Below are positions 1-21,340 of a stretch of 21,340 nt of DNA, in pieces. Under the pieces are notes generated by a model. The model did no database searches and was not told where the DNA came from. It saw nothing but the letters and a program-made list of their open reading frames with translations. The stretch is taken from the NCBI GenBank assembly GCA_019057475.1, contig DXJO01000037.1, forward strand, positions 1 to 21,340. Direction: 5' to 3'. A program made the position numbers and the translations under genes. The DNA comes from Candidatus Thorarchaeota archaeon (lineage in GTDB: Archaea; Asgardarchaeota; Thorarchaeia; Thorarchaeales; Thorarchaeaceae). Numbering within the stretch: position 1 is the first letter of the stretch; every line of letters starts with the position of its first letter.

Positions 1-2
1 TC

Positions 3-686
3 ATTTGCAAAGAGATAGGTTGTCCTGAGTTGATTGAACCTATTCCAAGACCCAAAGAAGTTTCAGCTATTAGACGACGTGACCTCTTGACTCCTAATGA
101 AATTGCTGCATTGTTGAGAGCCTGCAAAGACTTGTATGAACGTGCAATGATAGAATTACTAGTTGAGTCAGGCTGTAGGATTGGAGAGGTGCTTAGTCTT
201 AATGTCGAAGACATAACCACAGATGATAACTTCCTCTACGTGGATGTCATTGGTAAGACAGGCACTCGTCAAATTCCATTACTCAAAGATAATCTACCAA
301 GTTTTCAGTATCACTTGGTAATCCGTCTAAGTGGTCCAGTGTTCAACAGTAGTCGATATCCTGATAGACCAATCTCATATCGTGTTGTGCTTGATAAAAT
401 CGTGGACATCTTTCAGAGGGCTGGAGTCAAGAAACGTGCTAGAACAATCCACATCTTCAGGCATACCAAGGCAACGTATCTCATTGAACTAGGAGTTCCT
501 GAGAGTATCATCAAGAAGTTCATGGGATGGTCTGAAACTTCAGATACAATAACGAAGTACACCCATCTCACCAACAAGTCAGTCAAGGACTTCTTCAGCA
601 GGCTGTATGGTATTGATGAAGAACCTATTGAACCACTCTTCCCAGATGAAGAACGTAAGAGGATCAAGGAGATGTTCAAAGACTAG
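3..686 (+). CDS. Tyrosine recombinase/integrase (Xer/phage-integrase family), 5'-truncated by the window edge
   Basis: Catalytic motifs in order: GCRIGE (R), IGKTG (K), HIFRH (HxxR), MGW (H/W), KYTH (Y). The frame is open from position 3 (ICKEIGCPEL...), so the true start lies upstream. Confidence 0.95.
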   Translation: MCKEIGCPELIEPIPRPKEVSAIRRRDLLTPNEIAALLRACKDLYERAMIELLVESGCRIGEVLSLNVEDITTDDNFLYVDVIGKTGTRQIPLLKDNLPSFQYHLVIRLSGPVFNSSRYPDRPISYRVVLDKIVDIFQRAGVKKRARTIHIFRHTKATYLIELGVPESIIKKFMGWSETSDTITKYTHLTNKSVKDFFSRLYGIDEEPIEPLFPDEERKRIKEMFKD

Positions 687-919
687 TTTTCTATTACCTG
701 TGGTCCAGTACTGCGAGCAATTCTCTTAATAGAGCATTCTCCAAAGGATGCTAGAGGAGTGTGGAGTCTTATCGACTCCTGTTCATCTCTTTCAGTTACA
801 ATCCACCACCCACATTCTGGTCCCATACATGATTCCTTTACTAGTGGACATCTGGGTATTTTGCCTCTGTATACTTGGTGCCAGTTTGTTACGATGTTAT
901 ATTTGTCATCTTTACTCAT
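683..919 (-). CDS. Small Cys-rich hypothetical protein
   Basis: ORF from ATG 919 (MSKDDK) with CPLVKESCMGPECGWW...GECSI (4 Cys). Its stop overlaps the integrase stop (convergent). Confidence 0.6.
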   Translation of the reverse strand: MSKDDKYNIVTNWHQVYRGKIPRCPLVKESCMGPECGWWIVTERDEQESIRLHTPLASFGECSIKRIARSTGPQVIEN

Positions 920-1040
920 CACAATCAATCCTTATCTAAGTCGTTAGACGGTATTATCGCATATTACACAGTTGATCTGAAATAATCACTATTTATGCAC
1001 AATGTCTCAAGAAATCGTTGACATTTACAAATCCCAGAAT

Positions 1041-2117
1041 TCACGTGGGAGTTATCTTGACGAATCCAAAGCCAACGAACTCTGTTATCAAATCCATTGC
1101 CTTAGCGTCAAGTTTGTCTTTTTCAAAGGGGATGTAACCTATGTCACTGAAATCACTTGCAAGAGTCACCCTATCTTCTTTTAGTATCACAATCTTGTCA
1201 TACAGAATGGAGGCTGCACCAAGTTCATAAACCGCATTGTCACTTGGCCTCCAAATCTCCTTACCTTTTGCATCCAAGCACATCTCATCTGCTGTAAAGA
1301 TGATTATCGCTGATGTACACTCATGCATAAGGTCTGCAACTTTCTTCGAGATCGGACGACCCCCAAGTGGTTCGTCTATGGCAACCTTGTAAGGGACCCT
1401 GAACTTGTCAAGTATAGTCTTTAGTTGCTTCACAGGAATACGATTCTTACCATGAGCAACGAAAATCTGATTCTTCTTGGACGGTTCTGCTGTAGCCTTA
1501 GGAATCTGTTCTGTAACAGCCTCCTCAATCGATTCAGGTGGGACCTGAGTTTTTACTTTTGAAGAAACAGTTGGCCCTTCAAATGTAACATGCAAGGCAC
1601 CCTGACTCTCGAACAAAATACCAGCAAACTTGCCATTTGCTATTAGTTGATTGATGCAATCATCGAGAAACTTCTTTGGAATTTTGAAGTCGGTTTCCAA
1701 TGTATTCCTGAAGTAGGTGTCCTCTGCAGAAGGAAGACGCCCATCCCTATAGTACTCATATATCTTTTCGAACGCTTTGACGCTGAGCACAGCCTTCTGT
1801 CTGTCAAGTACTTCCTTCTCAGGCTTCACAGGTTTTGTAAGTGATTGACCTAACGGTGCCAAGGCTATTGTTGTTGCATTCCACGTTCCTTTGGTAATAG
1901 CGTACTTGTATGCCGAACTGGTAATATCTCTAAACTTTTGACTTCCTGCCTTCAACTTCATGTAGTCTGCAATGAATACAGGCTTCCATGGCTTCCCATT
2001 GTTGCCTTTCTGTATGGCTTGTGCTACCTTGAGTGCATCCTCAAGAGTATGATGTGGTATAGGTCTTTGGGGACTTCGCTTTTCCACTTTGGCAGTTCCT
2101 TTTGCTGAACCAGACAT
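1041..2117 (-). CDS. TIR-domain protein (Cap12/Pycsar-type TIR) with an uncharacterised, possibly wHTH-like, N-terminal domain
   Basis: C-terminal IFVAHG, AIIIFTADE, RPSDNAVYELG (putative catalytic Glu) and SDFSDIGYIPF match this TIR family. ATG 2117 (MSGSAK) is the likelier start than 2231. Confidence 0.85.
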   Translation of the reverse strand: MSGSAKGTAKVEKRSPQRPIPHHTLEDALKVAQAIQKGNNGKPWKPVFIADYMKLKAGSQKFRDITSSAYKYAITKGTWNATTIALAPLGQSLTKPVKPEKEVLDRQKAVLSVKAFEKIYEYYRDGRLPSAEDTYFRNTLETDFKIPKKFLDDCINQLIANGKFAGILFESQGALHVTFEGPTVSSKVKTQVPPESIEEAVTEQIPKATAEPSKKNQIFVAHGKNRIPVKQLKTILDKFRVPYKVAIDEPLGGRPISKKVADLMHECTSAIIIFTADEMCLDAKGKEIWRPSDNAVYELGAASILYDKIVILKEDRVTLASDFSDIGYIPFEKDKLDAKAMDLITEFVGFGFVKITPT

Positions 2118-2248
2118 TGTACATACCCAAAAGCAACTCCTAATGATTCGCAAATTAATGTTTCGACCAAACTCGCAGAGATTCATACCATCTAGAGTAT
2201 TGAAATCAAAGAGATGTTTGGGTAGGATCAATCCCTACCTTCTATATT

Positions 2249-2437
2249 TTATTCAAATGATTCAAGTTCAAGATAAACTGAACCTCTATTATTTCTGTAG
2301 AGTTTAAAGCGACCTGTAATCCTTTCACGTGTGTCTGCATTCTCTGCCGCTCTAATTAGGTCTGCAAACGCTTTGCTTGTTGCTTCTGTTACATTATCTG
2401 CATCCCGCGGTTCTCTTGTGCGTAGTCTTATCTTCAA
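2249..2437 (-). CDS. Small hypothetical protein
   Basis: 62-aa ORF co-oriented upstream of the TIR gene, with natural-looking composition and a GGAG upstream of the TTG start. Confidence 0.5.
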   Translation of the reverse strand: MKIRLRTREPRDADNVTEATSKAFADLIRAAENADTRERITGRFKLYRNNRGSVYLELESFE

Positions 2438-2571
2438 ATTTACTCAACTCCGTATTTTCATTCACGGCTTAAGGATAAGAAGATAGCATTTGTCCTTATC
2501 TATTTCTCAAATTCAATGCGGCAAAGAATGCCATTTTTGTACTAACATGACTGTCTATTCTGTGAGATACT

Positions 2572-2712
2572 ATGAAAGTCAAATGCCTAGACTGTGGACA
2601 TGTTGGAGAATCAGTAATTCCACCACCAAAAGGAAGCAAGTATGGGGAAGAATCTCAATCCATTCCAGCATGTGCTAAGTGCAAAAGTGGAAACATAACA
2701 AGATTGGAGTAG
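2572..2712 (+). CDS. 46-aa zinc-ribbon microprotein (not in ORF track)
   Basis: Manual translation MKVKCLDCGHVGESVIPPPKGSKYGEESQSIPACAKCKSGNITRLE*: two CxxC pairs, with a GTGAG RBS-like site upstream. Confidence 0.8.
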   Translation: MKVKCLDCGHVGESVIPPPKGSKYGEESQSIPACAKCKSGNITRLE

Positions 2713-2728
2713 ATTCATCGTTCAATCT

Positions 2729-3046
2729 CTAATCTCTAAGATTGCCGTATTCTGTTCCATCTGGCATAAACATTGTCTTACAAACATGACAATGAAGCCT
2801 CGTTGAACCAACAAGACTTCCAAGATAACCACATTTAGGACAATTTCCCATGCTACGTAATCTCTTCTGCTTTTTCATATACAACTCCCCAAATATCGTG
2901 AACTTGTTGAAACATTTAGGACATTTGAATCTGTAATTGCGACCTCGATTATCAGCAACTACTTTGGTCATCGGTTTACCCTGCAAAGGACACGTGGGAC
3001 ACCAATCACCTTCTTTCATGTGTGTTTTCCCATTGACAGTTATCAT
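2729..3046 (-). CDS. Double zinc-ribbon protein
   Basis: Four CxxC motifs (CPTC, CPKC, CPKC, CHVC) in 105 aa. Confidence 0.8.
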   Translation of the reverse strand: MITVNGKTHMKEGDWCPTCPLQGKPMTKVVADNRGRNYRFKCPKCFNKFTIFGELYMKKQKRLRSMGNCPKCGYLGSLVGSTRLHCHVCKTMFMPDGTEYGNLRD

Positions 3047-3156
3047 AATGATGAACCCTTTATTTGACGGTATCCTCTATGCTTATAAAAAACTCACTCC
3101 ACATAACTGAGCAATTCTCATAAGCAGCGTCTATTGGGTTAGGTAGAGGTTGTTCT

Positions 3157-3969
3157 TTGTATGATGTGATGATGGAATCCAAAGACTTCAAGGTATTCTT
3201 GGACTTCATGGACAGCAAAGATGCTACCTACTACATGAATTTCTGGGGTCACATGGACATTTCCATCCAGTGTGTTGCTAATGATGGACGTTATGTTGGA
3301 GAATTAATCACAAGTTATAGATTCAAATACACTTGCATTGAACCTCTCAGAATTTGCTTTGATTCAAAGACTAGAGAGGCACTCAGGAGGTCAAGTATTG
3401 GAGTCGAAAAGGTCACCATTGAAGGTTCAAATATCGTCCTTGGTGAAGACCAATACACCGTGATAAGTCGGTATATGAATGAACGATTGCCACCTATTAT
3501 TGAGGATACGACAGAGAGAATTCAAGAGATGACTCTTTTACTTAGTGAGTTTCGAAGAGCGGTCAACATTCTTCATAAAGAAAAGATACAACTTGCTAGA
3601 CTTCGTTTTCTTGTGAAGAGTCGATTATTGGAAGTTTCTACAACCACTGAACTATCGACTTCGTGGAGTTTCAGACTTCCTACATCTGATGTCTATTTTT
3701 CAGGTGAAGAACCTCAGGTGTATTTCGGACAGGAGGAGTATCCAGATCCTCCTCAGGTCATAGACTCGTACTATGACGTAAATGACCTTCTATGTGTGAT
3801 AGATGCAATGGAATATCACTATGGAAGAGAAATCGTGCTCTCACTGTCACTACTCCAAGATGACAGATTGCTCTTTGAATCAGATAATAAGAAAGGTACT
3901 CTCCATCATAGGTATAAGGAAGCTACTCTCACGCATAGGTGTATACTCAACAAAGCAGTCATAGAATAG
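3157..3969 (+). CDS. Divergent PCNA-like sliding clamp
   Basis: 270 aa. The pattern follows PCNA: FKVFLDFM, ISIQCVAND (cf. ISLQAMD), FKYTCIEPLRICFD (cf. FDEYECDEPxxIGV), LSEFRRAV, DSYYDVNDLL (cf. SSYSLEYL). By-eye match only. Confidence 0.6.
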   Translation: MYDVMMESKDFKVFLDFMDSKDATYYMNFWGHMDISIQCVANDGRYVGELITSYRFKYTCIEPLRICFDSKTREALRRSSIGVEKVTIEGSNIVLGEDQYTVISRYMNERLPPIIEDTTERIQEMTLLLSEFRRAVNILHKEKIQLARLRFLVKSRLLEVSTTTELSTSWSFRLPTSDVYFSGEEPQVYFGQEEYPDPPQVIDSYYDVNDLLCVIDAMEYHYGREIVLSLSLLQDDRLLFESDNKKGTLHHRYKEATLTHRCILNKAVIE

Positions 3970-4018
3970 AAATGTTACAAAGAATGCAACATTTGCTCTG
4001 CAAGGACTCACTGATGTA

Positions 4019-4207
4019 GAACACGCAATGCGTCCATCTGGGTGATGAGGTCCACTAGAGGAGCACGTCACAGGCAGAGGTGCACTAGGAGGTTGACGTC
4101 ACAGGCTCGATATCGGGAGTCTCTATAGGTGAAATATGGGCCACCCAATCAATACCTATTCACAAGATTTTACGTAGTAAAATCGTCCTCTGTGACTCCA
4201 CCGAATT
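4019..4207. repeat. Copy 1 of a ~190-bp non-coding module
   Basis: Shares GAACACGCAATGCGTCCAT (19/19), four GT(S)CAC(T)AG(G)-type units, ATCGGGAGT..CTATAG, CCTATTCAC and an 8-bp hairpin with 5171-5357. Confidence 0.85.
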
Positions 4208-4363
4208 CTATTCCTCGTCATTGAGTGGAATATCAACCACAAACGAATCAACATCAATTTCCCCATTCGTGATGTAAAGTTTTCCAGCAACGTCTTCATG
4301 ATTTGACACGAAGTGAGTATTTTCTGGACCCACCTTTACATTAGTAAACTTGACCTTAACCAT
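4208..4363 (-). CDS. 51-aa hypothetical microprotein
   Basis: ATG at 4363 (MVKVKFTNV...) is preceded by a perfect GGAGGTGA RBS. Confidence 0.7.
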   Translation of the reverse strand: MVKVKFTNVKVGPENTHFVSNHEDVAGKLYITNGEIDVDSFVVDIPLNDEE

Positions 4364-4394
4364 CTCTTCACCTCCTGTTACGTGTATCATAACA

Positions 4395-5100
4395 CAAGAT
4401 TTCTTCGGAATTACGTGTGGTGATATCTAAATCCGAGGAGTTCCTGTTTACTAACAGTCAGTCAAATGTGCTGATTCCACAAAATCTCCGATGACTGTTT
4501 TAGCAGAAGGAGTTGCTCCTCTCAATGGGCTAAGTTGTACTCCTTCTGCACCTTTTTCCCATCACCTTATAGAACTCCATACTTCGCCGTATTTCCGAAG
4601 AACACCTCGGTAACAGAGAGGAGCAACAAAGTTTAGCCCCTGTCCATGAATTGCGTTGATAATTCAGGAACCATAGGTTAACTGGATAACATATTTGGCA
4701 CAATTCCTAAGTTTCTCGTAACCTCAGGACGTCAGAAGTACACCTAATACTACTGACAAACTGATCCATATGAGATAAAGTACATCGTCTGATGTACTTG
4801 TTCAGTCACCTGAGTAATTCTTTACAAAGACACTGCTGTACTACTCATATGATATAACAAAGACACTGCACTACTAGGAGAAATCGGATGAATTCTTTAG
4901 AGGGAATATTTCCCTTGAAAATAATTCCCAGAAATTTATTAAACCTGAGGTCTCGCCATACTTAACTTTTGTGTATGACACTCCGCGAGACACCTAGACA
5001 AATTGGGTTGTTTCGAGGTCATACTTAAAGAGTGGGCTTTAACTTCGAAAAGACCTCCCACAAGAACACTTCCGAAATCCGAGTTGTCTTTGGTCGACGC
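4395..5100 (+). ncRNA. Candidate structured ncRNA domain(s) with pseudoknots
   Basis: Helices 4401-4415/4588-4602 (14/15), 4437-4443/4572-4578, 4453-4460/4492-4499, 4503-4513/4539-4549, 4778-4786/4791-4799, 4950-4956/4985-4991 and 4996-5009/5076-5089. G-U pairs favour +. No credible ORF. Confidence 0.55.
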
Positions 5101-5154
5101 AATGCGATACCCACGAGTTAATTGCCAACACTTCTTCAAATCCGCCTTTCCTCA

Positions 5155-5570
5155 ATACAAAGATGCTACTGAACACGCAATGCGTCCATATGTCGTCACT
5201 AGGAGGCTGAGGTGCACAGGAGCACGTCACAGGCACGTCCACTAGGAGAGATCAGTTCAAATCGGGAGTTCTATAGAGGTAAACTGCGCCATCCCAAATC
5301 ACTCCTATTCACTAAGTAATTTCCCTTGAAATTACGCCTCCTAGTAACCATCGATTTGTCGAAGACAAATCATCTGGTTACCTGGTGGACATCTTTGTGT
5401 CCTGTGTGTTAAGTGAATAGGGCTGCCGCAGTATGTATTACGAATTATTGGCACTAGCATCTTTGTGTCCACTCCTCTAAAGTCGAAGTATTAGCCCAAT
5501 AGATTCATCGGATTTACTGGGAGAACTTGTCTGTCACAACTGTAGAGAAACCCCCGATTTATTCCAGTGA
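5155..5570 (+). ncRNA. Candidate structured ncRNA (contains module copy 2)
   Basis: Nested helices 5259-5276/5540-5560, 5283-5288/5427-5432, 5304-5313/5412-5421, 5316-5323/5328-5335, 5344-5350/5375-5381, 5353-5360/5364-5371 and 5387-5392/5397-5402. G-U pairs favour +. Confidence 0.55.
5171..5357. repeat. Copy 2 of the ~190-bp non-coding module
   Basis: Collinear conserved blocks with 4019-4207. Confidence 0.85.
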
Positions 5571-5638
5571 TGTCCATGCTTTAGTACAGTCCTTCAATAA
5601 TTGTAGAGCCTTGTACTCCCAGCCAATTTAACTCAAGA

Positions 5639-5697
5639 TATGTCTCAAATAGTTGTAGAGTCATTCAACTATGTCTCAACTCGTGTGAGTCATTCAA
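5639..5697. repeat. Imperfect ~31-bp tandem duplication
   Basis: TATGTCTCAA...GAGTCATTCAA occurs twice (starts 5639 and 5670). Confidence 0.7.
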
Positions 5698-5715
5698 TCA
5701 CTCTTCAATTATCGT

Positions 5716-6219
5716 TCAAACTAGTAGCGGCTCACTCTCAAACTGGATATTATCTACTGAAATATGTAGGCAGTCTCCTCTCCTAATCCAAGGTTTCTCT
5801 TCATATGCAAGTTCAAATGCTTTGAATAGAAGTAGGGTCTTTAAATGACTATCAAGTGACGGTTCATGTACTTCATTGTGGCAGCTATTACAAAGAAGTG
5901 ATAATGTCCACGGTTGACCGTCACCATGTGAATATTGATTCTCTATGTGGTGAAGGCTTAGTTTCTGATAATTGAAGACTTCACTCTTGCCACAAAGAAC
6001 ACAATTCCTTCCATAGAGATTTCTGATGTGTAGTCTTTGAAATGTTGAAACATCACCTGCTCTATTTCCATGTTTATAATCTAATATTGAAAGAGGACGT
6101 TCTGACCACATCTTTGCCATTCTACGTGAATGTGATACTCTTTGTTCATATGTGAGTTTCATTTGCATCACTCTCTCAGTATCAATCTTTTCATTGCTCT
6201 TTTGAACCGTTTCAAACAC
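5716..6219 (-). CDS. HNH endonuclease-like protein (paralog 1)
   Basis: CVLCG...LHHI...LLCNSCHNEVH: Zn-binding HNH signature. The start may be a downstream ATG. Confidence 0.85.
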   Translation of the reverse strand: MFETVQKSNEKIDTERVMQMKLTYEQRVSHSRRMAKMWSERPLSILDYKHGNRAGDVSTFQRLHIRNLYGRNCVLCGKSEVFNYQKLSLHHIENQYSHGDGQPWTLSLLCNSCHNEVHEPSLDSHLKTLLLFKAFELAYEEKPWIRRGDCLHISVDNIQFESEPLLV

Positions 6220-6334
6220 TCCTTACTACAAAAGTAGAAGGTCTTGTCACCTACTTCATAATCTATGCTGCTTCGAATATTCACAGTCTTGCAACAGAAA
6301 TAGCAATCAACGATTACTACGTGTTGTCTTTGCA

Positions 6335-6802
6335 TTATATCACCTTCTTATCGACACTTGCTGTACTTGGTGCTATAGGCTGGACCTCTGAACTAATTGA
6401 TCGATTTGAAGGCATTGATTCTTCTGTAACCCCCATCAATCCCGTTAGATTCCCCTTAGAATAGGCTGTTACCTTGAACATCACGTCCTTTATAATCTCG
6501 TCAATGAATTCACTACAATCTTCATTTAGTCTGTATATTACCATAACAGCAATGAGGAAATCTCTTAGTCCTTTCTTTGTTAGGTCTTTGTAAGGAGTAC
6601 AAATCTTCCATCGCATCTGATATCTGTTGAATACAGGAGAACAAAATTTTGCTGATGGAGTGTAATAGCAATACACTCTAGGTCTCGGACCATGTCTGTA
6701 AAACAACATTGAACAGAACAGAAATTGTGCATCAAAGAAATCCTCTTCTATGAAGAATATTGATGATATGTATTTGATCCTATCTAATAACAAAGAATAC
6801 AC
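6335..6802 (-). CDS. Hypothetical protein
   Basis: 155-aa ORF co-oriented upstream of HNH 1. No motif recognised and the start is uncertain. Confidence 0.55.
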   Translation of the reverse strand: MYSLLLDRIKYISSIFFIEEDFFDAQFLFCSMLFYRHGPRPRVYCYYTPSAKFCSPVFNRYQMRWKICTPYKDLTKKGLRDFLIAVMVIYRLNEDCSEFIDEIIKDVMFKVTAYSKGNLTGLMGVTEESMPSNRSISSEVQPIAPSTASVDKKVI

Positions 6803-6809
6803 TTCCTAG

Positions 6810-7439
6810 CATTTGTCTTTGTGCTTACATTCAGTTTGACCTGCTCTTAGGCAGGTATGTTGAACTATGTGGGATTTACTGCCCTTCTAACCCGTTACAT
6901 TCTAGATTTGAAGGCCTTCACATCCCTGAAGACGTCCGCATTTTGTGAAGTGTAACAAAGTATATTGCAACTATCAGGACCCGATTCCCACTCCTTCTTC
7001 CGTAACTCGGAGAGTTTCTTACTATGTTTCTGAAGTTCCTCTTCAGACAAACTATCCCAATAACTAGTGCTTATCGGGTCGTTGGGTTGCAAATGCAACA
7101 ACTTTCTGTAAGAAAGTATGGCTGGCACAGAATTGTTTCCGTGAATACCATCATTCCAAGGTATCAAGGTCAAACTCAACGTAGCTGCCTACATCATTGC
7201 TAATCTCTCTTGTCCCAGTACGTTGTGAGAAGTCTATAGATTCTGGGAGGACTCGTATCCCAATTCTTCTTATAGAGGATCATCGCCAGCCAATGTATCC
7301 CCCAGTTGGCATTCATTTTTGCGACATCTGCTAACGCGTTACCATTCCGTTAGGACATACGGTATCACCCAGTTCGGTACTCAATTGCTAACGCATTAGC
7401 ACAAGTCACTCTACATCTGCTAAAGTATCGCTGTTAGCA
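6810..7439 (+). ncRNA. Candidate ~630-nt structured ncRNA
   Basis: Helices 6819-6825/7398-7404, 6824-6830/6867-6873, 6839-6844/6851-6856, 6894-6901/6949-6956, 6965-6972/7085-7092, 6978-6985/7073-7080, 7029-7035/7041-7047, 7101-7107/7111-7117 and 7119-7126/7285-7292. G-U pairs favour +. Confidence 0.55.
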
Positions 7440-9055
7440 GGCCCTGTGGAATAAGTCGAATGACGGAAAAGAACCAGAATTCCATCTCTTCGATGTTGCA
7501 TTTCATACATCTCACAAGAAAACCGATGCTGATATCGATCACATCGAGTGTAAACTAACGGGCTTTTTCCACAGAGCCGATCTCTTCGGACAAGTTATTA
7601 GCAAAGACGTACAAATCACGGTTGAGGGGAAGGCAAACCATTGATTGCGGTTCCGTATCTAGTGAAGCAAGCAAGGAGGTCGAAAGTCCGAATTTATTCG
7701 GTCATTCTTCTATGCTCTATTATCGGGACAGTTCACCTGACCATATCTCTGGAAACCTACGTCAGAGAACCAGTGGCAATCTGGGAGGAACTGAATAATC
7801 CATGGGCCTATGCTCTCTACGACATTGCCTTTTATGATTCATCTCGCGGGTGGGCAATTGGAATGGCAGATGCTGGGCCAGGGGAACGTGACTGTGGAGT
7901 TGTGCTGCAGACCAAAGATGGAGGAGATACGTGGACCCTGTCCTATTCGAACCCGGATGTTCAACCTAATTTCATCGAGATTGTTGATTCCAAGACGGTA
8001 TGGATTGCTACAAGAAGAGGACTCCTGAACACTCTTAACGGTGGTTTAACATGGAATATCGACCTGCCAAAATACAAAGCAGCTTATGAATACAATCCCA
8101 CTGTGGCATTCAAAAACTCCACGCATGGTTGGACAAGTATAAACTGGGAACTCCTCTATACTGTAGATGGAGGGCACATCTGGAATCCTGTCGAATCATG
8201 GCCCTTTGATACAGGGGTTTTCCAGATCCGTTTTGTTGGAGAACAACTGATGTGGGCAGGGAGTCTTGATGGAATATTCCACAGCCAAGATGGAGGACAG
8301 ACTTGGACTCAGCAATTCAACAGATCAACCCGTGGTCTTGCAATAGTGAGCGAAACTGAGGGATGGGCTTGTTACCTTGACAGCCATCTTTCACACATGA
8401 TAGATGGACAAAACTGGATTCAAAAGCATACACCCAGCAGAGCGTCCTATTTCCAATGGGCAGCTTCGCGCTATATGGATTTGGAATTCATCAACCCCAA
8501 ACAGGGTTGGATAGTGGGGTCTACCGTGGGTGTCGCTTACACTCCAGATGGGGGATTGAACTGGTATGTACAAAAGCTACCCCCACGCTGGAGTAGTCTG
8601 CGGGCTGTAGACTTCATCAATGAAACACATGGCTGGGCTGTTGGATGGAATGGGAACATATACCGTACAAGAACAGGCAATCAATACGGCAGAAGGTTGG
8701 TAGGAGACGGGTACGTGATTCGAGGGTTTGGGGGTGACTGGGTTATTCCAAGTAGCACTGTGGTATGTGTCATTCTGGTTGCTTTTGGTGGTATTGTATC
8801 ACTTCAATTGATTGATAGATATCGGGAGAGGAGAAAATCTGAACCAATTCAAGCATCCCTGAGAATTCAATGGTAGGATTGTGTGACAAAAGGTTGGCAT
8901 ACTGAATATCAGTAGCCCCTAATAGGCGAAAGATAAGATCAAAGAGTGCGATGTGGAAGTTACCAACATCGGTTTTCTTGTGAGATGTATGAAATGCAAC
9001 ATCGAAGAGATGGATCCTGGTTCTTTCTCTGTCATTTGACTTATTCCACAGGGCC
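7440..9055. mobile_element. Non-autonomous IS5-family (IS903-like) insertion cassette carrying one passenger gene
   Basis: Perfect 18-bp terminal IR GGCCCTGTGGAATAAGTC (7440-7457 / 9038-9055), extending imperfectly to ~110 bp with a perfect 48-bp block (7481-7528 / 8967-9014). Direct flanks CTGTTAGCA (9 bp) at 7431-7439 and 9056-9064. No transposase. Confidence 0.92.
7641..8876 (+). CDS. YCF48-related / BNR(Asp-box)-repeat beta-propeller membrane protein
   Basis: Six TxDGGxxW-type repeats (TKDGGDTW, TLNGGLTW, TVDGGHIW, SQDGGQTW, MIDGQNW, TPDGGLNW), F.N...GW motifs, and N- and C-terminal hydrophobic segments. Confidence 0.9.
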   Translation: MIAVPYLVKQARRSKVRIYSVILLCSIIGTVHLTISLETYVREPVAIWEELNNPWAYALYDIAFYDSSRGWAIGMADAGPGERDCGVVLQTKDGGDTWTLSYSNPDVQPNFIEIVDSKTVWIATRRGLLNTLNGGLTWNIDLPKYKAAYEYNPTVAFKNSTHGWTSINWELLYTVDGGHIWNPVESWPFDTGVFQIRFVGEQLMWAGSLDGIFHSQDGGQTWTQQFNRSTRGLAIVSETEGWACYLDSHLSHMIDGQNWIQKHTPSRASYFQWAASRYMDLEFINPKQGWIVGSTVGVAYTPDGGLNWYVQKLPPRWSSLRAVDFINETHGWAVGWNGNIYRTRTGNQYGRRLVGDGYVIRGFGGDWVIPSSTVVCVILVAFGGIVSLQLIDRYRERRKSEPIQASLRIQW

Positions 9056-9074
9056 CTGTTAGCAGACAAAGATA

Positions 9075-9308
9075 TCATTCCAAAATTGGATAATAGTCAA
9101 TATCCTCTGTATCTTTGTAGATTGAGCATTTCTTAGAACCTAGGATGACATCATATGGCACCCAAGTTACTTTCAGAGGCTCAATTCCCTCCAAAATCAC
9201 TTTACCATAGGTAAAACCCATGAACCGTACCCTAACACTTACACTTCTACTAAGCAACTTACGAATCTTGCGCTTCTGCTCAGTGGTAAGGTCAAGTTCA
9301 ATCTTCAT
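9075..9308 (-). CDS. Small hypothetical protein coupled to HNH 2
   Basis: ATG 9308 with GGTGGTGA upstream, 11 nt after the HNH 2 stop. Confidence 0.65.
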   Translation of the reverse strand: MKIELDLTTEQKRKIRKLLSRSVSVRVRFMGFTYGKVILEGIEPLKVTWVPYDVILGSKKCSIYKDTEDIDYYPILE

Positions 9309-9319
9309 CGTCACCACCC

Positions 9320-9781
9320 TTAGAAATACATCTCAAAGATAATGTCCTGTTCAAGAGCCTTCACCAGCGTAATGTCTGGTGTTCCTCTCTTAACCACGCT
9401 TCCTTCCTCATAACCATACTCGAATGCTTTGAGAAGACACATCATATCGAGGAATCCATATTGCTCCTCTCGATGGATCATTGAGTGACATTGTGGACAG
9501 ACTAATGTTACCCACCAAGGATTTGCATCGCCGTGTAAATTATCTCTTACAATATGATGAAAGTGCATATTGTGTTCGCCTATGAATAATTCACTTATAC
9601 CACAAAGAACACAATTCCTTTCGAACAAATTGCGTATATGTCTTCCATTTGTTCCTAAAAGACGACATCCGTATTCTCCAGTTATCTCATAAAAATGACC
9701 AACAATTAATCCTTCAGCTGCTTTCTTGATCAATGCTCGTGATACTGCTAGATTATGGTCATATTGTTTGAATGTGCTCAT
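9320..9781 (-). CDS. HNH endonuclease-like protein (paralog 2)
   Basis: CVLCG...FHHI...LVCPQCHSMIH, with GGAGA upstream. Clearly homologous to 5716-6219. Confidence 0.85.
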   Translation of the reverse strand: MSTFKQYDHNLAVSRALIKKAAEGLIVGHFYEITGEYGCRLLGTNGRHIRNLFERNCVLCGISELFIGEHNMHFHHIVRDNLHGDANPWWVTLVCPQCHSMIHREEQYGFLDMMCLLKAFEYGYEEGSVVKRGTPDITLVKALEQDIIFEMYF

Positions 9782-9840
9782 GTTTCTTTATCTCCTAAAC
9801 TCGTTCTGAGGTCACCAGAGCCTGCCTCTGTACAGTGTAC

Positions 9841-9951
9841 TCGATACTTGGAATTGTACCTGGAATATGCTACTATCTTATCAAATCGAAATCATGCCCG
9901 ATGTGTAATAGCCAAAACTGGGGGGTAAAACCAAAGCGTAATAGTTTTTGA
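9841..9951 (+). pseudogene. 3' fragment of a small membrane/Zn-ribbon protein gene
   Basis: Translates ...ILGIVPGICYYLIKSKSCPMCNSQNWGVKPKRNSF*. The first CxxC half and a convincing start are missing. Confidence 0.5.
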
Positions 9952-10029
9952 TATCCACAAGATCTTGTATGGTATTCGGTGCGTCTACCCTAGCAGGCGG
10001 AGTCGAAGTCATACAAAGATTCGCAGATC

Positions 10030-10428
10030 TCATCGTTCAACATTCTTCTCCCAATAATATTCGACTGACTTGCTATCGTCCGCCCCTAGATATTCTAGCA
10101 TCGATCTAAAAAGCGGTTCAAGGTGGCTAGGGTCATCGAGTGCAAAAACGAAGACCGGTCCCTTCGACTTCTTCAGGATCGTGCTGGTCCTGTACTTGGC
10201 TATCGCACTCATGTGCCATGGCCACGCAGCATCAAGAAAGTGTTCTCTTATTTCGATTCTCTTTGCCCTTTGTCGTCCGCGAATTTTATATCGGAGAAAA
10301 CAGTAACGCTTGGTGTAGGGCCTCATATCATTGAAGGGGGTTTTGTGGCTCTTACCTTTGTCGATTACTTTTCTTAACCTTTCAAATTCTTCACGAGAAA
10401 GCACGATAGGCATGAAATCACAGTCCAA
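10030..10428 (-). CDS. Hypothetical protein
   Basis: 132-aa ORF, the longest in the interval. The start may be MPIVLS. Confidence 0.6.
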   Translation of the reverse strand: MDCDFMPIVLSREEFERLRKVIDKGKSHKTPFNDMRPYTKRYCFLRYKIRGRQRAKRIEIREHFLDAAWPWHMSAIAKYRTSTILKKSKGPVFVFALDDPSHLEPLFRSMLEYLGADDSKSVEYYWEKNVER

Positions 10429-10713
10429 GGAGTAGCAATCGAATTGTCCGAATCAGATTCAACATTGAAGCAATTCTAAGCAATTCTCCATCGAATGGAA
10501 GTTGAAGTACAGGGAGCAATTGTTTTTTCATTTCATCACCTGAAGGTGGGCGAGACAGTATTCCATTAGTCAACACGACTTCATTACTGAAGTGCGCCTT
10601 GAGCGACATTGATACTGCCCCGCCCTTATTTAGAATCCAATCGCGCTCAAATTGAAGGAACACGTAGCCCCTGCCGCTGCCCCGATAGTGAACCCAATCG
10701 CATTGGATTAGAG

Positions 10714-11343
10714 ATGAAAATCACAATCGACCTTGATTTGCTGTTTGAAAACTTCGTGAGGAACTACGGATCATTCGGTTTCAACCAGAGTTGCACATGG
10801 ACTCGCCACACTACTGAGTACATGAGCTGGTTTGCGAAAGAGGGGATGGGAAGGGGCTTTCATGTGGACCAGGAAGTAGAATACCCAGAGCCGCCCGAGA
10901 TAGGTGCACAGAAGAAAAGGAGGGCTGACTTGGTTTGGATAACCGATCCGGATAGGCCACTGAAGGACGAGGTGTTTGCACTTCATGTTGAAAGCGAAAC
11001 TGGGGAGAAGTGGGGTGAACTCACAGTTAGTCTCTTGGCATACTCTCCTTTCAAGCCGCTTCCTGCCGTAGTGGGAGTGCTTCATAAAACGACGCAGAGG
11101 AAATCCAAACGCGCATTTGCACGCTCGATTGTCAAGTACGCGTCTAAAAGGCTGAAAAACAGGAACCGGGAGATGTTGTTAATCCTCGACCTGTTCTGGG
11201 AGGAAGGAGATCCTATCTACGGATGCATCATAGACAGAAGAGGTTCGGTAAGAATACATCTAGCTGAAGGACTCTACCACAAATGGCGAAAGGAAAAATA
11301 CTATGACTTGAAGCTTGTAGGCCAAGTCAAGAAGTTTGAGTGA
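10714..11343 (+). CDS. Putative PD-(D/E)xK-fold nuclease-like protein
   Basis: EVEY...RADLVW...LHVESE acidic motif spacing is typical of restriction-endonuclease-like folds. Likely ATG 10714 (MKITIDL). Confidence 0.55.
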   Translation: MKITIDLDLLFENFVRNYGSFGFNQSCTWTRHTTEYMSWFAKEGMGRGFHVDQEVEYPEPPEIGAQKKRRADLVWITDPDRPLKDEVFALHVESETGEKWGELTVSLLAYSPFKPLPAVVGVLHKTTQRKSKRAFARSIVKYASKRLKNRNREMLLILDLFWEEGDPIYGCIIDRRGSVRIHLAEGLYHKWRKEKYYDLKLVGQVKKFE

Positions 11344-11548
11344 GGATCATGGCATGTCATTTCAAACTGAAAAACCCTGAATGTTCGACTGGCCCGTCCT
11401 CGGCCCAGAAGAATCAAACTCCAAGGTCGAAGACTGCAGAGTGTACCTGTGTCGGTCCAAGAACTCTTGACGCATAGATGTGTTTTATGAAGGGAGAATC
11501 GAGGATAACTATGGAGATATTGCTATGCTAGAGATGGATTGGGTCTTT

Positions 11549-11752
11549 ATGCGCGATTCCTCCAAGGATGTCATCAAGCTGCTAGTTGTCATCTTATTTC
11601 TGGTGGCCATAGTACTGCTTGCGAGCGGAAGTTTCGATATCACTCAACCTGTAATGCTGTTTCTTGCGGCTGGCATCGCTTGCTTCGCCATTCTCGCAAT
11701 CTGTAGTGGGATTGTAATCCGCAGACGGTCAATCTCCCACGATTGGCAGTAG
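11549..11752 (+). CDS. Small two-TM membrane protein
   Basis: Two hydrophobic stretches and a basic tail (RRR). Start uncertain (11480-11549). Confidence 0.6.
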   Translation: MRDSSKDVIKLLVVILFLVAIVLLASGSFDITQPVMLFLAAGIACFAILAICSGIVIRRRSISHDWQ

Positions 11753-11877
11753 AGGTCTGCACAGGCGCCCTAGAGGGGTCTGTTGTCGAAACAAGTACCA
11801 TTCATGCATACTACGTGAGCTATCGCTGGTATAGGGGACCATTAGGGCTGAACTGTTCAGTGGAGGAGTTCATTTAG

Positions 11878-12012
11878 CAAGAACTCATTGATAGATTCTT
11901 GAAGACTAAGGAAAAAGCACGATATCTGAGTATTGCCGATTGGGTGAGAGATTGCCTTCGCCACTGCCTAGACGCGATTGAGATGAAAGAGAGAGAAGAG
12001 AGAAAGAAGTGA
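11878..12012 (+). pseudogene. Ribbon-helix-helix (CopG-like) gene remnant
   Basis: QELIDRFLKTKEKARYLSIADWVRDCLRHCLDAIEMKEREERKK* fits the RHH helices (Y.S..(D/E).VR..LR). It is preceded by an in-frame TAG and the N-terminal strand is missing. Confidence 0.55.
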
Positions 12013-12083
12013 GTGACCGAACACCCTTCACGACACCTCGTGTTCTGCCTGTGCAAGATAGGGTGTTAAGTTCGTGTTAGATG

Positions 12084-13177
12084 ACTCACTCATGTTATCC
12101 TCTTCTGATGCTGTTAGATTGAGATGTTAGGTGGTTCTGAATTCTCTTCTTCACAAAAAGACCTAACAAGTTATCACAAGTTCACAGAAAAGGTCTGATA
12201 TATCAGGCGGCTTTAGGCATTCTTTGATAGAAGCGTAGCTGTCTCGCTAATTAATACGTTCGTATTATTTAGACAATGTTCTTCACAAAATTCCATATGC
12301 CGTACAATCTTCCGAGCGGTGTCATAATCCTTTCTGCACCACGCTTCGACTGCTGGAATATTGCATTTTAGTCCCTCTATCTTATCATAGAATTATATAC
12401 ACTCTTGACAAAAACATATACACTCTTGACAGTGTCAACATCTGAATCCTAACAACCTAACAGAAACATATACACTCTTGACAGTGTCAACATCTGAATC
12501 TTCACAAGTTGACAGAAAAACTTCACAAGTTTTCACAGACTCACAGAAAATCCTCACAAGTTCACAGAAAAGGTCTGATATATCAGGCGGCTTTAGGCAT
12601 TCTTTGATAGAAGCATATACACTCTTGACAAAAACATATACACTCTTGATGGAAAAGGTCTGATATCTCAAAGGCATAATAAAGATGGGCCATTTGGTCG
12701 TCTATCCACTATATAGGGTGTCCTGCAAGTACGTTTGCAAGTGTGTTTGCAAGTTGGCCTATATAGCGCTCCTGCAACCCTCTTTGTAAGGGTGTTTGTA
12801 AGGGTGTTTGTAAGGTGGGTCTTTCGTACCCTTCAATCACCTGAGCATCGCATGAGAATCGAGGTCTAACGGGATGTGAGGGGGTGAGGATGGGGGTACG
12901 AAAGCCATACTAGACCTCATCTACCCTCATTCTATGAGGGGGTAGCCATAGCCCAGTGTGTTAGTATCTTACATGACTAATAACCTAACACATAAGCATC
13001 AATGCATCCTAAGAAAGACAGACGTGTGTAAGATGCCAGCTTGCAAGCATTTTCATAGTTGTCTGCAATGTAATTACCACTCATCACGCAAGAACGAAAG
13101 GTGTAAACAACCTAACATTTTACAGATGTTAGTCCTCCTGTTCTAGTGTAGATAGGACTTCCCACACTGCCTTCTCA
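12084..13177. repeat. Copy A of a repeat-rich non-coding element
   Basis: Collinear with 14913-15595: CACTCATGTTA, CTGTTAGATTGAG, GTTAGGTGGTTCTGA, two CTATATAG boxes with 12-bp repeats, hairpin 12821-12831/12894-12904, and a 47-bp terminus at 13131-13177. Confidence 0.9.
12174..12650. repeat. Iteron-like cluster
   Basis: Perfect 61-bp direct repeat (12174-12234, 12554-12614), five ATATACACTCTTGA (12395, 12416, 12468, 12615, 12636) and two TTGACAGTGTCAA inverted repeats. Confidence 0.9.
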
Positions 13178-19825: not shown

Positions 19826-20581
19826 TGCCGCGAAAGCCGAGTTCACAAATGCGTGAGCGACCCAGCATGCGATTAGGTTGTTGTTGCGCTTCATGAAGAC
19901 AATCCCAAAGACTGCGGCTGCCATGAATGTTGACAGGCCGTACATCATGACCCAGCCAACTGGCAGGAATGGCAGCGTTATCAAGACATGAGGGGCTGCA
20001 AAAGCGAGGGACTGGATCACGAGTGTCTTCAATGCAGAGGTCCTCTCTGACAACTTGTTCTGGAGGTATCCCCTGAACAGTATCTCTTCAGCAGGAGCAA
20101 GAAACGCGAATATGTAGCACATTTCCAGAATCAGGTTCAGTGGAAACGAAAATCCGGCTGCAAATACAAAAACCCTAGACAGGTCTTCTGCAGACTGACT
20201 GCTCCCCCCACCAACCGGCGCAATTCCTGAGGCCAACGCGACAACAGACATTGCGAAGCCTATCCCTATTCCGATTGCGGCCTCCCTCACTATGCCTTGT
20301 CGCTTGATTCCTAGATCCTCTAGTGACCTCCCGCGGTAGGCCAACTCGTACAACAGGATGATCCAAACCACGGGAAGGGCAATCGGTATGGCCACGTTGT
20401 CAATCATGTTCATCAGTGCGAGGAAGAACGCGAAGAGGATAACATGTCCCAGAGCTAAGAGGTACGGAGCAGTTTTCGGCTGCTCGACTCGCGCAGCCGC
20501 ATCATTCAACAAACCGTCGGTGGATTGTGAGAATCCAGCTCTCCAACCAACTCTGCGATCAGAATCCACGGATCTACCCAT
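19793..20581 (-). CDS. CPBP family (CAAX/Abi) intramembrane metalloprotease
   Basis: AEEILFRGYL, FAAPH and HAFVN motifs with multiple TMs. Confidence 0.93.
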   Translation of the reverse strand: MGRSVDSDRRVGWRAGFSQSTDGLLNDAAARVEQPKTAPYLLALGHVILFAFFLALMNMIDNVAIPIALPVVWIILLYELAYRGRSLEDLGIKRQGIVREAAIGIGIGFAMSVVALASGIAPVGGGSSQSAEDLSRVFVFAAGFSFPLNLILEMCYIFAFLAPAEEILFRGYLQNKLSERTSALKTLVIQSLAFAAPHVLITLPFLPVGWVMMYGLSTFMAAAVFGIVFMKRNNNLIACWVAHAFVNSAFAALILIPLAMGF

Positions 20582-21113
20582 AGAGTCTCTTCTCCAGATG
20601 CTTTAGGAGCTCCGGCGCGTTCTTCACCGTATAGACCATCCACGCGAAGATAGCTATCCCGATGGCCAAGAAGGCAAACATGAATAACACACCTTCAATG
20701 GGGCCGCCCTCCAGAAGAATCTCATAGAGTTTCATTCCGCCAAAGAGGATTGGAATTGTAAGTGAAAACATCAGAATGTATGCCATCCACCTCAGCGCAG
20801 GCATCAGGGAAGCAGGCTTCCTTACCTTCAAGTACTTACGAAAGTCATTGGTGGGCTTCTCCTTAAGCGATAGCATCAGCTCCATTGATACGATGCCTAA
20901 GGGTGTGAGTGTATATCGCAGGCGTTCGTTCTTCTCAATGAATCCATCAAGTTGTTTGATGTGATAGTTGAGTTTCCCGGTTGACAGGCCAAGTTCGCTG
21001 AGGATCTCAGTATACGATGCTCCATCATCTCCATAGGCTACTAGTTTCAGGATGTCGCGTCTTGCTGGGTGAGCAAGCACATCAAAGATAATCGACTCAG
21101 CCTCCTTGTCCAA
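20574..21113 (-). CDS. ArsR-like winged-HTH regulator with two C-terminal TM helices
   Basis: FDVLAHPARRDIL...YTEI...STGKLNYHIKQL...YTLTPLG, an AGGTGA RBS, and an 8-bp overlap with the CPBP gene. Confidence 0.9.
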   Translation of the reverse strand: MDKEAESIIFDVLAHPARRDILKLVAYGDDGASYTEILSELGLSTGKLNYHIKQLDGFIEKNERLRYTLTPLGIVSMELMLSLKEKPTNDFRKYLKVRKPASLMPALRWMAYILMFSLTIPILFGGMKLYEILLEGGPIEGVLFMFAFLAIGIAIFAWMVYTVKNAPELLKHLEKRLYG

Positions 21114-21340
21114 TACAATTCACCTACTCCAATACGGGCGAATTTGCTAAAATAGTTTCTTGACAAAATCTCTTTGACAACTGTGCTTGTCAATAACAAT
21201 AGAGGGACGATAAGATATAGCATTACATTTCGAGCGAGTGTAGGTCCATTGAAATGGTTAAATGCCTTCACAGACCAACATGCTTACCTCTGCGGGGGTC
21301 TTTGAGCACTCGCTTGTACGGAAGGTGAAATCGCGGGACA

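Follow-up and report, generated by a model that had tools for sequence, protein, structure and literature searches.

The window analysed here is the complete contig C17 (21,340 bp), which is part of the 3.34-Mb genome assembly of a Candidatus Thorarchaeota archaeon. It encodes a tyrosine recombinase, a TIR-domain protein, two small HNH proteins and a primase-helicase, and therefore represents a mobile element. Near the stretch under study the G+C content is about 0.40, compared to about 0.50 for random tiles of the genome. The stretch lies in a row of genes on the minus strand, in the order HNH2, ORF80, (inserted cassette), stretch, ORF155 and HNH1:

9320-9781, minus strand: HNH2, with a ribosome-binding-type motif
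9075-9308, minus strand: ORF80, with a ribosome-binding-type motif
9065-9074, minus strand: 10 nt from the ORF80 stop to the target site of the cassette; they pair with 6814-6822 and lengthen hairpin H1 in the empty site
9056-9064: right copy, CTGTTAGCA, of a 9-bp target duplication
7440-9055, plus strand: inserted cassette, in which a BNR/YCF48-like gene lies between two MITE-type arms
7641-8876: the BNR/YCF48-like gene, encoding a membrane protein, sole gene of the cassette
7431-7439: left copy, CTGTTAGCA, of the 9-bp target duplication
6810-7439, minus strand: hairpin-rich stretch without a convincing gene, from ORF80 to ORF155, continuing at 9065-9074 in the empty site
6802-6809, minus strand: ribosome-binding-type motif AGGAAGTG; the TTG start (6793) of ORF155 follows after 6 nt
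6335-6793, minus strand: ORF155, an orphan, coding-like by codon signal
5716-6219, minus strand: HNH1

The ORF finder placed the start of ORF155 at a GTG at 6802, which belongs to the motif AGGAAGTG. The database form of the protein (152 aa) uses the TTG at 6793, and this codon, following the motif, is most likely the true start. Profile searches gave no family match for ORF80, ORF155 or ORF132, and in a six-frame search of 400 genomes of the phylum ORF155 and ORF80 matched their own genome alone. An AlphaFold model of ORF80, calculated without an alignment, was of low confidence (pLDDT 47.5). The two neighbouring HNH proteins comprise 153 and 167 aa and match PF01844 weakly; neither a RuvC nor a transposase domain was found in the element ORFs scanned. 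When the HNH paralogues were used as anchors in metagenome and genome contigs, a collection that may lack near-identical records, pattern matches were obtained and no relative was found.

Some observations concern the element as a whole. No terminal overlap of the contig ends was found. If the end of the contig is joined to its start (1-30, 21260-21340), the recombinase frame is lengthened by 27 codons at its upstream end and then starts with an ATG. In other data, HNH2 has a counterpart of at least 90% identity on a contig of 21,363 bp, and a 260,381-bp JGI contig and a 4826-bp Logan contig carry these genes as well. C17 may represent a complete unit of an element that occurs both in a free (circular) and in an integrated form. 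Positions 1041-2231 encode a protein of 396 aa, the C-terminal TIR domain of which is of the CAP12/Pycsar type; the protein matches the PADLOC candidate system PDC-S35, and the element may carry a defence gene here. A winged-helix-like protein is encoded at 20574-21113. Among 150-nt windows starting at 1-12376, the top local folding signal was located at 10501-10650 (z -4.4 on the minus and -3.0 on the plus strand), in the divergent gap between ORF132 and ORF244.

A first-pass annotation had described the stretch as a structured plus-strand region of about 630 nt, the 3' end of which was hit by an insertion. The insertion is real: the cassette at 7440-9055 has 107-nt terminal inverted repeats, is flanked by the 9-bp duplication and cuts a helix of the reconstructed empty site. 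No transposase is present in it. Both of its arms can be assigned to a family of 143-bp MITEs, of which the genome contains four further copies that are all flanked by a 9-bp duplication (C29:28898-29040, C40:145354-145496, C42:4843-4985, C21:21946-22088). In its long inverted ends, the 9-bp duplication, the missing transposase and the four 143-bp relatives the cassette resembles MITEs or MICs, a likeness that concerns the insertion and not the stretch. A preference of the family for TTAGCA targets was rejected, as it was not seen at the four other copies; since the targets share no motif, landing in a TTAGCA site looks accidental. Most homologues of the BNR/YCF48-like passenger gene are labelled Candidatus Thorarchaeota, and relatives at 91-92% identity occur on contigs of 2.0-3.5 kb, as is seen for repeats that break assemblies. 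No long ORF spans the reconstructed empty site. In the likely sense of transcription, however, the cassette marks the 5' end of the stretch, 10 nt past the ORF80 stop, and not its 3' end. Due to the target duplication and the first base of the cassette, hairpin H1 persists after the insertion with a stem of 7+2 bp, and the adjacent three-way junction is unaffected.

Folding of the 635 nt from 6805 to 7439 was more stable than that of all 100 dinucleotide shuffles (z -3.4 on the plus and -3.7 on the minus strand). For the reconstructed empty-site join, also compared to 100 shuffles, z was -4.3 (plus) and -3.6 (minus). As a control, 19 random native 635-nt tiles of the genome gave a mean z of -0.16 with a standard deviation of 0.99 and a minimum of -1.45. 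Folding no different from that of shuffles had been named beforehand as the result that speaks against a structured region; the stretch stays well outside both the shuffles and the genome tiles. We counted seven perfect hairpins with a stem of at least 6 bp versus 1.6 +/- 1.3 in shuffles, and at least seven such hairpins were present in just 0.4% of 3000 genome tiles. The description of the region as helix-rich and non-coding in appearance thus holds, also in view of ORF94, which is unconvincing as a gene (see below). The stretch is a statistically unusual orphan non-coding region.

The distribution of this signal is uneven, as seen from the blocks and features of the stretch:

7315-7439, folded with 9065-9078: palindrome block D on the minus strand, hairpin H1 plus a three-way junction; MFE -35.0 (plus) and -50.9 (minus) kcal/mol, z -3.3 (plus) and -5.2 (minus)
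7200-7320: z -0.1 (plus), -0.6 (minus)
7198-7439: six TGCTAA/TTAGCA half-sites, at 7198, 7329, 7386 and 7418 (plus) and at 7396 and 7434 (complement)
6955-7200: z -3.9 (plus), -2.5 (minus)
7072-7164, minus strand: the sole block with a relative elsewhere, as protein IPWNDGIHGNNS.PAILSYRK ... QPNDPI, common to P0002
7025-7170, minus strand: core of five short hairpins in a row, with perfect stems at 7029-7047, 7086-7099 and 7101-7117; z -1.8 (plus), -3.6 (minus)
6895-7179, minus strand: ORF94, with TTG or GTG as the only possible starts, probably not a gene
6823-6843 and 7165-7185: arms of a long-range inverted repeat of 17-19 bp, which brackets ORF94
6805-6975: z -1.4 (plus), -1.3 (minus)

Helices do not fill the intergenic space, as had been stated: the signal comes from 6955-7200 and 7315-7439, whereas 6805-6975 and 7200-7320 are shuffle-like. 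That two of the four sub-blocks have no folding excess also argues against one single RNA of 630 nt. The proposed bias of G-U pairs towards the plus strand is absent, with 15 of 189 pairs in the minimum-energy fold of the plus strand versus 17 of 190 in that of the minus strand, and over the whole length the minus strand is the more stable one (-192 versus -179 kcal/mol). Assignment to the plus strand could not be upheld on these numbers, and the strongest block favours the minus strand, on which all neighbouring genes and the ORF155 motif also lie. The preference nevertheless differs by block: 7315-7439 favours the minus and 6955-7200 the plus strand. In most blocks G-U pairs were fewer than in shuffled controls (this does not apply to 7200-7320 on either strand or to 6805-6975 on the plus strand). 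A low G-U content is expected of true inverted repeats, and the pairing is thus largely strand-symmetric.

The most stable block consists of palindromes. Hairpin H1 is formed by 7416-7439 plus 9065-9066, and the closing helix of the three-way junction comprises 21 bp (7409-7386/7344-7321). Exact palindromes are located at 7386-7401 and 7418-7439 (two versus 0.02 expected), and an imperfect one at 7329-7344. The hexamer TGCTAA or its complement occurs six times within 242 nt, compared to about 0.09 expected from the genome density of 0.355 per kb, and the array at 7198-7439 is the sole place in 3.34 Mb with at least four half-sites per 250 nt. The 11-mer ACATCTGCTAA is present at 7324 and 7413, which accounts for two of its four occurrences in the genome. 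A short motif is thus enriched in inverted and direct arrangement in an intergenic position, as is characteristic of operators or iterons. Judged by its sequence, the TGCTAA array is most likely an operator, to which a dimeric DNA-binding protein encoded by the element would bind.

The SSV1 repressor F55 binds to repeated sites that are an example of an operator array, comparable to OR/OL of phage lambda. The array described here is similar to such viral and plasmid arrays, as one half-site is repeated as inverted pairs over about 250 bp between genes of a mobile element, and as the cluster is unique in the genome. Unlike in lambda OR/OL and the F55 sites, the spacing of the half-sites varies (4, 4 and 10 nt). 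A replication origin was set aside, as other repeat-rich regions of the contig presumably fit this function better.

Both long-distance pairings proposed for the empty site were recovered. TCTGCTAA (7416-7423) and TTAGCAGA (9059-9066) form 8 perfect bp, and TGTCTTTGT (6814-6822) and ACAAAGATA (9066-9074) form 9 bp including one G-U pair. The latter helix closes the joined fold of the plus strand with a mean pair probability of 0.94. By our own rough estimate, a 9-bp end-to-end pairing arises by chance with a probability of about 0.04 if the ends can be chosen freely, so that the end-to-end pairing exceeds chance with weak significance only. In the minus-strand fold, the arms 6823-6843 and 7165-7185 form a 19-bp helix with one G-U pair and a pair probability of 0.89. 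This repeat is a candidate for the closure of an RNA domain, for an invertible segment or for an old insertion. The bracketed segment 6823-7185 (362 nt) was rejected as a MITE, because it has no other copy and no target duplication.

Rfam 15 gave no match for the whole window at the gathering threshold, nor for 3900-7600 at E up to 5; this search covered group I and II introns, GOLLD, ROOL, HEARO, OLE and riboswitches. The stretch matched only itself in its own genome, and we confirmed that it resembles neither the 4-5.5 kb region nor any other part of the genome. No alignable relative was found in 40 related genomes or in phage and plasmid collections, and a degenerate pattern of the conserved block retrieved no relative from viral, genome and metagenome collections. 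Searches of viral contigs with two exact 22-23-mers were also negative. Pfam searches with nine open-frame pieces, which covered both strands and four of the six frames, yielded nothing credible.

The only open frame of note in the stretch is ORF94. An open frame of this size arises in 16% of shuffles, and ORF94 has neither an ATG start nor a ribosome-binding-type motif, which HNH2, ORF80 and ORF155 do have. Its codon signal is the weakest among the element ORFs, being nil in the N-terminal third and weak in the C-terminal half, as judged by a codon-frame model that separates short ORFs poorly and calls a frame across the cassette end coding. No Pfam, PHROG or PADLOC family matched ORF94. The six-frame search of 400 phylum genomes gave no homologue (two chance-level matches, E 0.004-0.006), the best score in a protein atlas (0.82) was at chance level, and a single-sequence AlphaFold model reached a pLDDT of 47.6. 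The gene callers of two sources report a 77-aa form. Among 5.8 billion proteins, other assemblies contain copies of ORF94 itself, and the one further relative is P0002, a predicted protein of 159 aa from an environmental contig of 1342 bp. P0002 is identical to ORF94 in 20 of 21 residues, followed by QPNDPI, with little similarity beyond. Residues 1-30 of P0002 match C22:14810-14900, where the frame contains three stops, which indicates that P0002 was called as a gene in DNA that is mosaic and non-coding. On the basis of this comparison, 7072-7164 is best read as a conserved nucleic-acid module that overlaps the row of five hairpins. Non-coding modules appear to be shuffled among related elements, as a C22-like non-coding segment is joined to the 7072-7164 block on the contig of P0002. 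A DNA alignment of the stretch to C22 was within the range of shuffles.

An exhaustive protein search with ORF94 added only TPR-repeat proteins and P0006, and the Pfam matches of P0006 are peptidoglycan-binding repeats, not TPR. The TPR proteins repeatedly match one 16-residue motif of ORF94 that resembles helix B. Since many repeats of one short motif are summed, the E-values are inflated, and we regard the likeness as due to chance. TPR models of Pfam did not match ORF94, even at E up to 5, and the assignment to the TPR proteins was rejected, as there is one motif and no tandem 34-residue repeat. The question raised by the annotation, whether the frame 6895-7179 is a conserved protein, is thus answered in the negative: it has one partial, mosaic relative and a chance-level likeness to TPR.

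Considering these data together, we favour the view that the stretch is a spacer or leader on the minus strand that combines a row of hairpins with a palindrome array resembling an operator, and assign a probability of roughly 0.45 to it. A cluster of three palindromes with six TGCTAA half-sites directly after ORF80 would constitute the putative operator array and would be bound by protein. In a minus-strand transcript the same palindromes would fold into a very stable hairpin plus the three-way junction. The row of five hairpins would be a second module, part of which recurs in one other environmental element. Later, the stem of the first hairpin was hit by a MITE-derived cassette, 10 nt past the ORF80 stop; this would have uncoupled ORF155 and HNH1 from the upstream genes, with nearly all local pairing kept.

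Protein binding, the direction of transcription and any regulatory effect of the stretch are inferred. As the ribosome-binding-type motif of ORF155 marks the end of the stretch, at least the distal part of the stretch would be transcribed on the minus strand as the leader of this gene. In archaea, such motifs usually belong to internal genes or to genes with leaders, and a run of T is the usual signal for transcription stop. No T run is seen on the minus strand, which makes read-through from ORF80 before the insertion plausible. In the minus-strand operon context the stretch resembles structured leaders. Leaders that mask the ribosome-binding site and the fold-back mRNAs of type I toxins are similar in that the start of the spacer is paired, by a helix, with the bases 5-13 nt upstream of the ORF155 motif. 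Unlike in such leaders, the helix misses the motif itself and the spacer is very long (640 nt), and unlike in type I toxin systems ORF155 is not toxin-like. An overall z of about -3.5, which exceeds that of most untranslated leaders, speaks against the leader reading.

The most serious alternative, although we consider it unlikely, is that the minus strand encodes a large, structured non-coding RNA of about 640 nt that is free-standing and works with the adjacent compact HNH proteins. The long-range helices (6823-6843/7165-7185 and 9066-9074/6814-6822) and three G-U pairs of the minus strand in the helix 7304-7291/7285-7273 are easier to reconcile with an RNA fold than with a DNA site. The minus strand has a closing helix (9072-9066/6822-6816) and would adopt a closed multi-domain fold with helices of 19 and 21 bp and pair probabilities of 0.89-0.97; its z of -3.6 to -3.7 for the whole stretch lies outside the 19 genome tiles, that of block D (-5.2) is the lowest of the blocks, and one block recurs in another contig, in a frame that is non-coding elsewhere. 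Long, ORF-poor and helix-rich stretches of mobile elements beside HNH genes are also known as GOLLD, ROOL and HEARO/omega RNA. Unlike for GOLLD, ROOL and HEARO, there is no match to an Rfam model at E up to 5 and the pairing is strand-symmetric. Most helices are perfect palindromes that fold equally from either strand, two of the four sub-blocks are shuffle-like, relatives are lacking in 40 kin genomes (as DNA) and 400 genomes (six-frame), and the stretch is unlike the region downstream of the other HNH gene in sequence, all of which argues against such an RNA. The HEARO/omega RNA of IscB was rejected, as the neighbouring proteins are HNH-only, 153-167 aa in size and without RuvC or transposase. 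The more specific proposal that the minus strand represents a new class of large (about 640 nt) RNAs of Asgard mobile elements, partnering the flanking HNH nucleases, appears quite unlikely.

Somewhat less likely than a free-standing minus-strand RNA is that ORF94 is a genuine gene for a small protein with one TPR-like pair of helices, the remainder being a promoter and operator (7180-7439) and a short gap before ORF155. The 77-aa calls from two sources, the weak codon signal in the C-terminal half and the palindromes upstream of the frame are in agreement with this, and AILSYRKLLHLQPNDP fits the helix-B pattern of TPR and draws TPR proteins in the all-against-one search. The inflated E-values and missing Pfam TPR matches described above weaken this last point, however, and in P0002, the sole true relative, which is itself mosaic, two residues are inserted inside the motif. 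The lack of an ATG and of a ribosome-binding-type motif, a length reached in 16% of shuffles, the pLDDT of 47.6 and the five hairpins inside the frame also speak against a protein.

We regard it as improbable that the stretch is functionless, decaying filler made of old insertions and genes, in which the palindromes are leftover ends of mobile elements. MITEs are active in the genome, the sequence is an orphan whose single relative is mosaic, and the repeat 6823-6843/7165-7185 brackets a 360-bp segment like a small element. This segment has no flanking target duplication, however, no part of the stretch has a second copy in the genome, and the reuse of one hexamer six-fold as inverted pairs is not a product of decay. 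Least probable of all is the original proposal of a structured plus-strand RNA of about 630 nt, antisense to its neighbours and deprived of its 3' end by the cassette: the joined plus-strand fold has the best z over the whole length (-4.3) with its closing helix at 0.94, and 6955-7200 prefers the plus strand (-3.9 versus -2.5), but the G-U bias is missing, the absolute energy is lower on the minus strand, block D strongly prefers the minus strand, and the RNA would run antisense to the motif and leader of ORF155.

The main value of this well-delimited orphan sequence lies in its use as a target for further study. If the minus strand gave rise to a new class of RNA, this could act as a guide, a scaffold or a processing signal, and the TGCTAA palindromes would be RNA stems and not DNA sites. 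Any folded RNA from this locus would join the very few large non-coding RNAs from archaeal mobile elements and would back the idea of RNA partners for the two small HNH genes of the element. If, as we favour, the palindrome array is an operator, it would act as a control switch in an Asgard mobile element that is as yet uncharacterised and would provide a handle on a regulator among its orphan genes.
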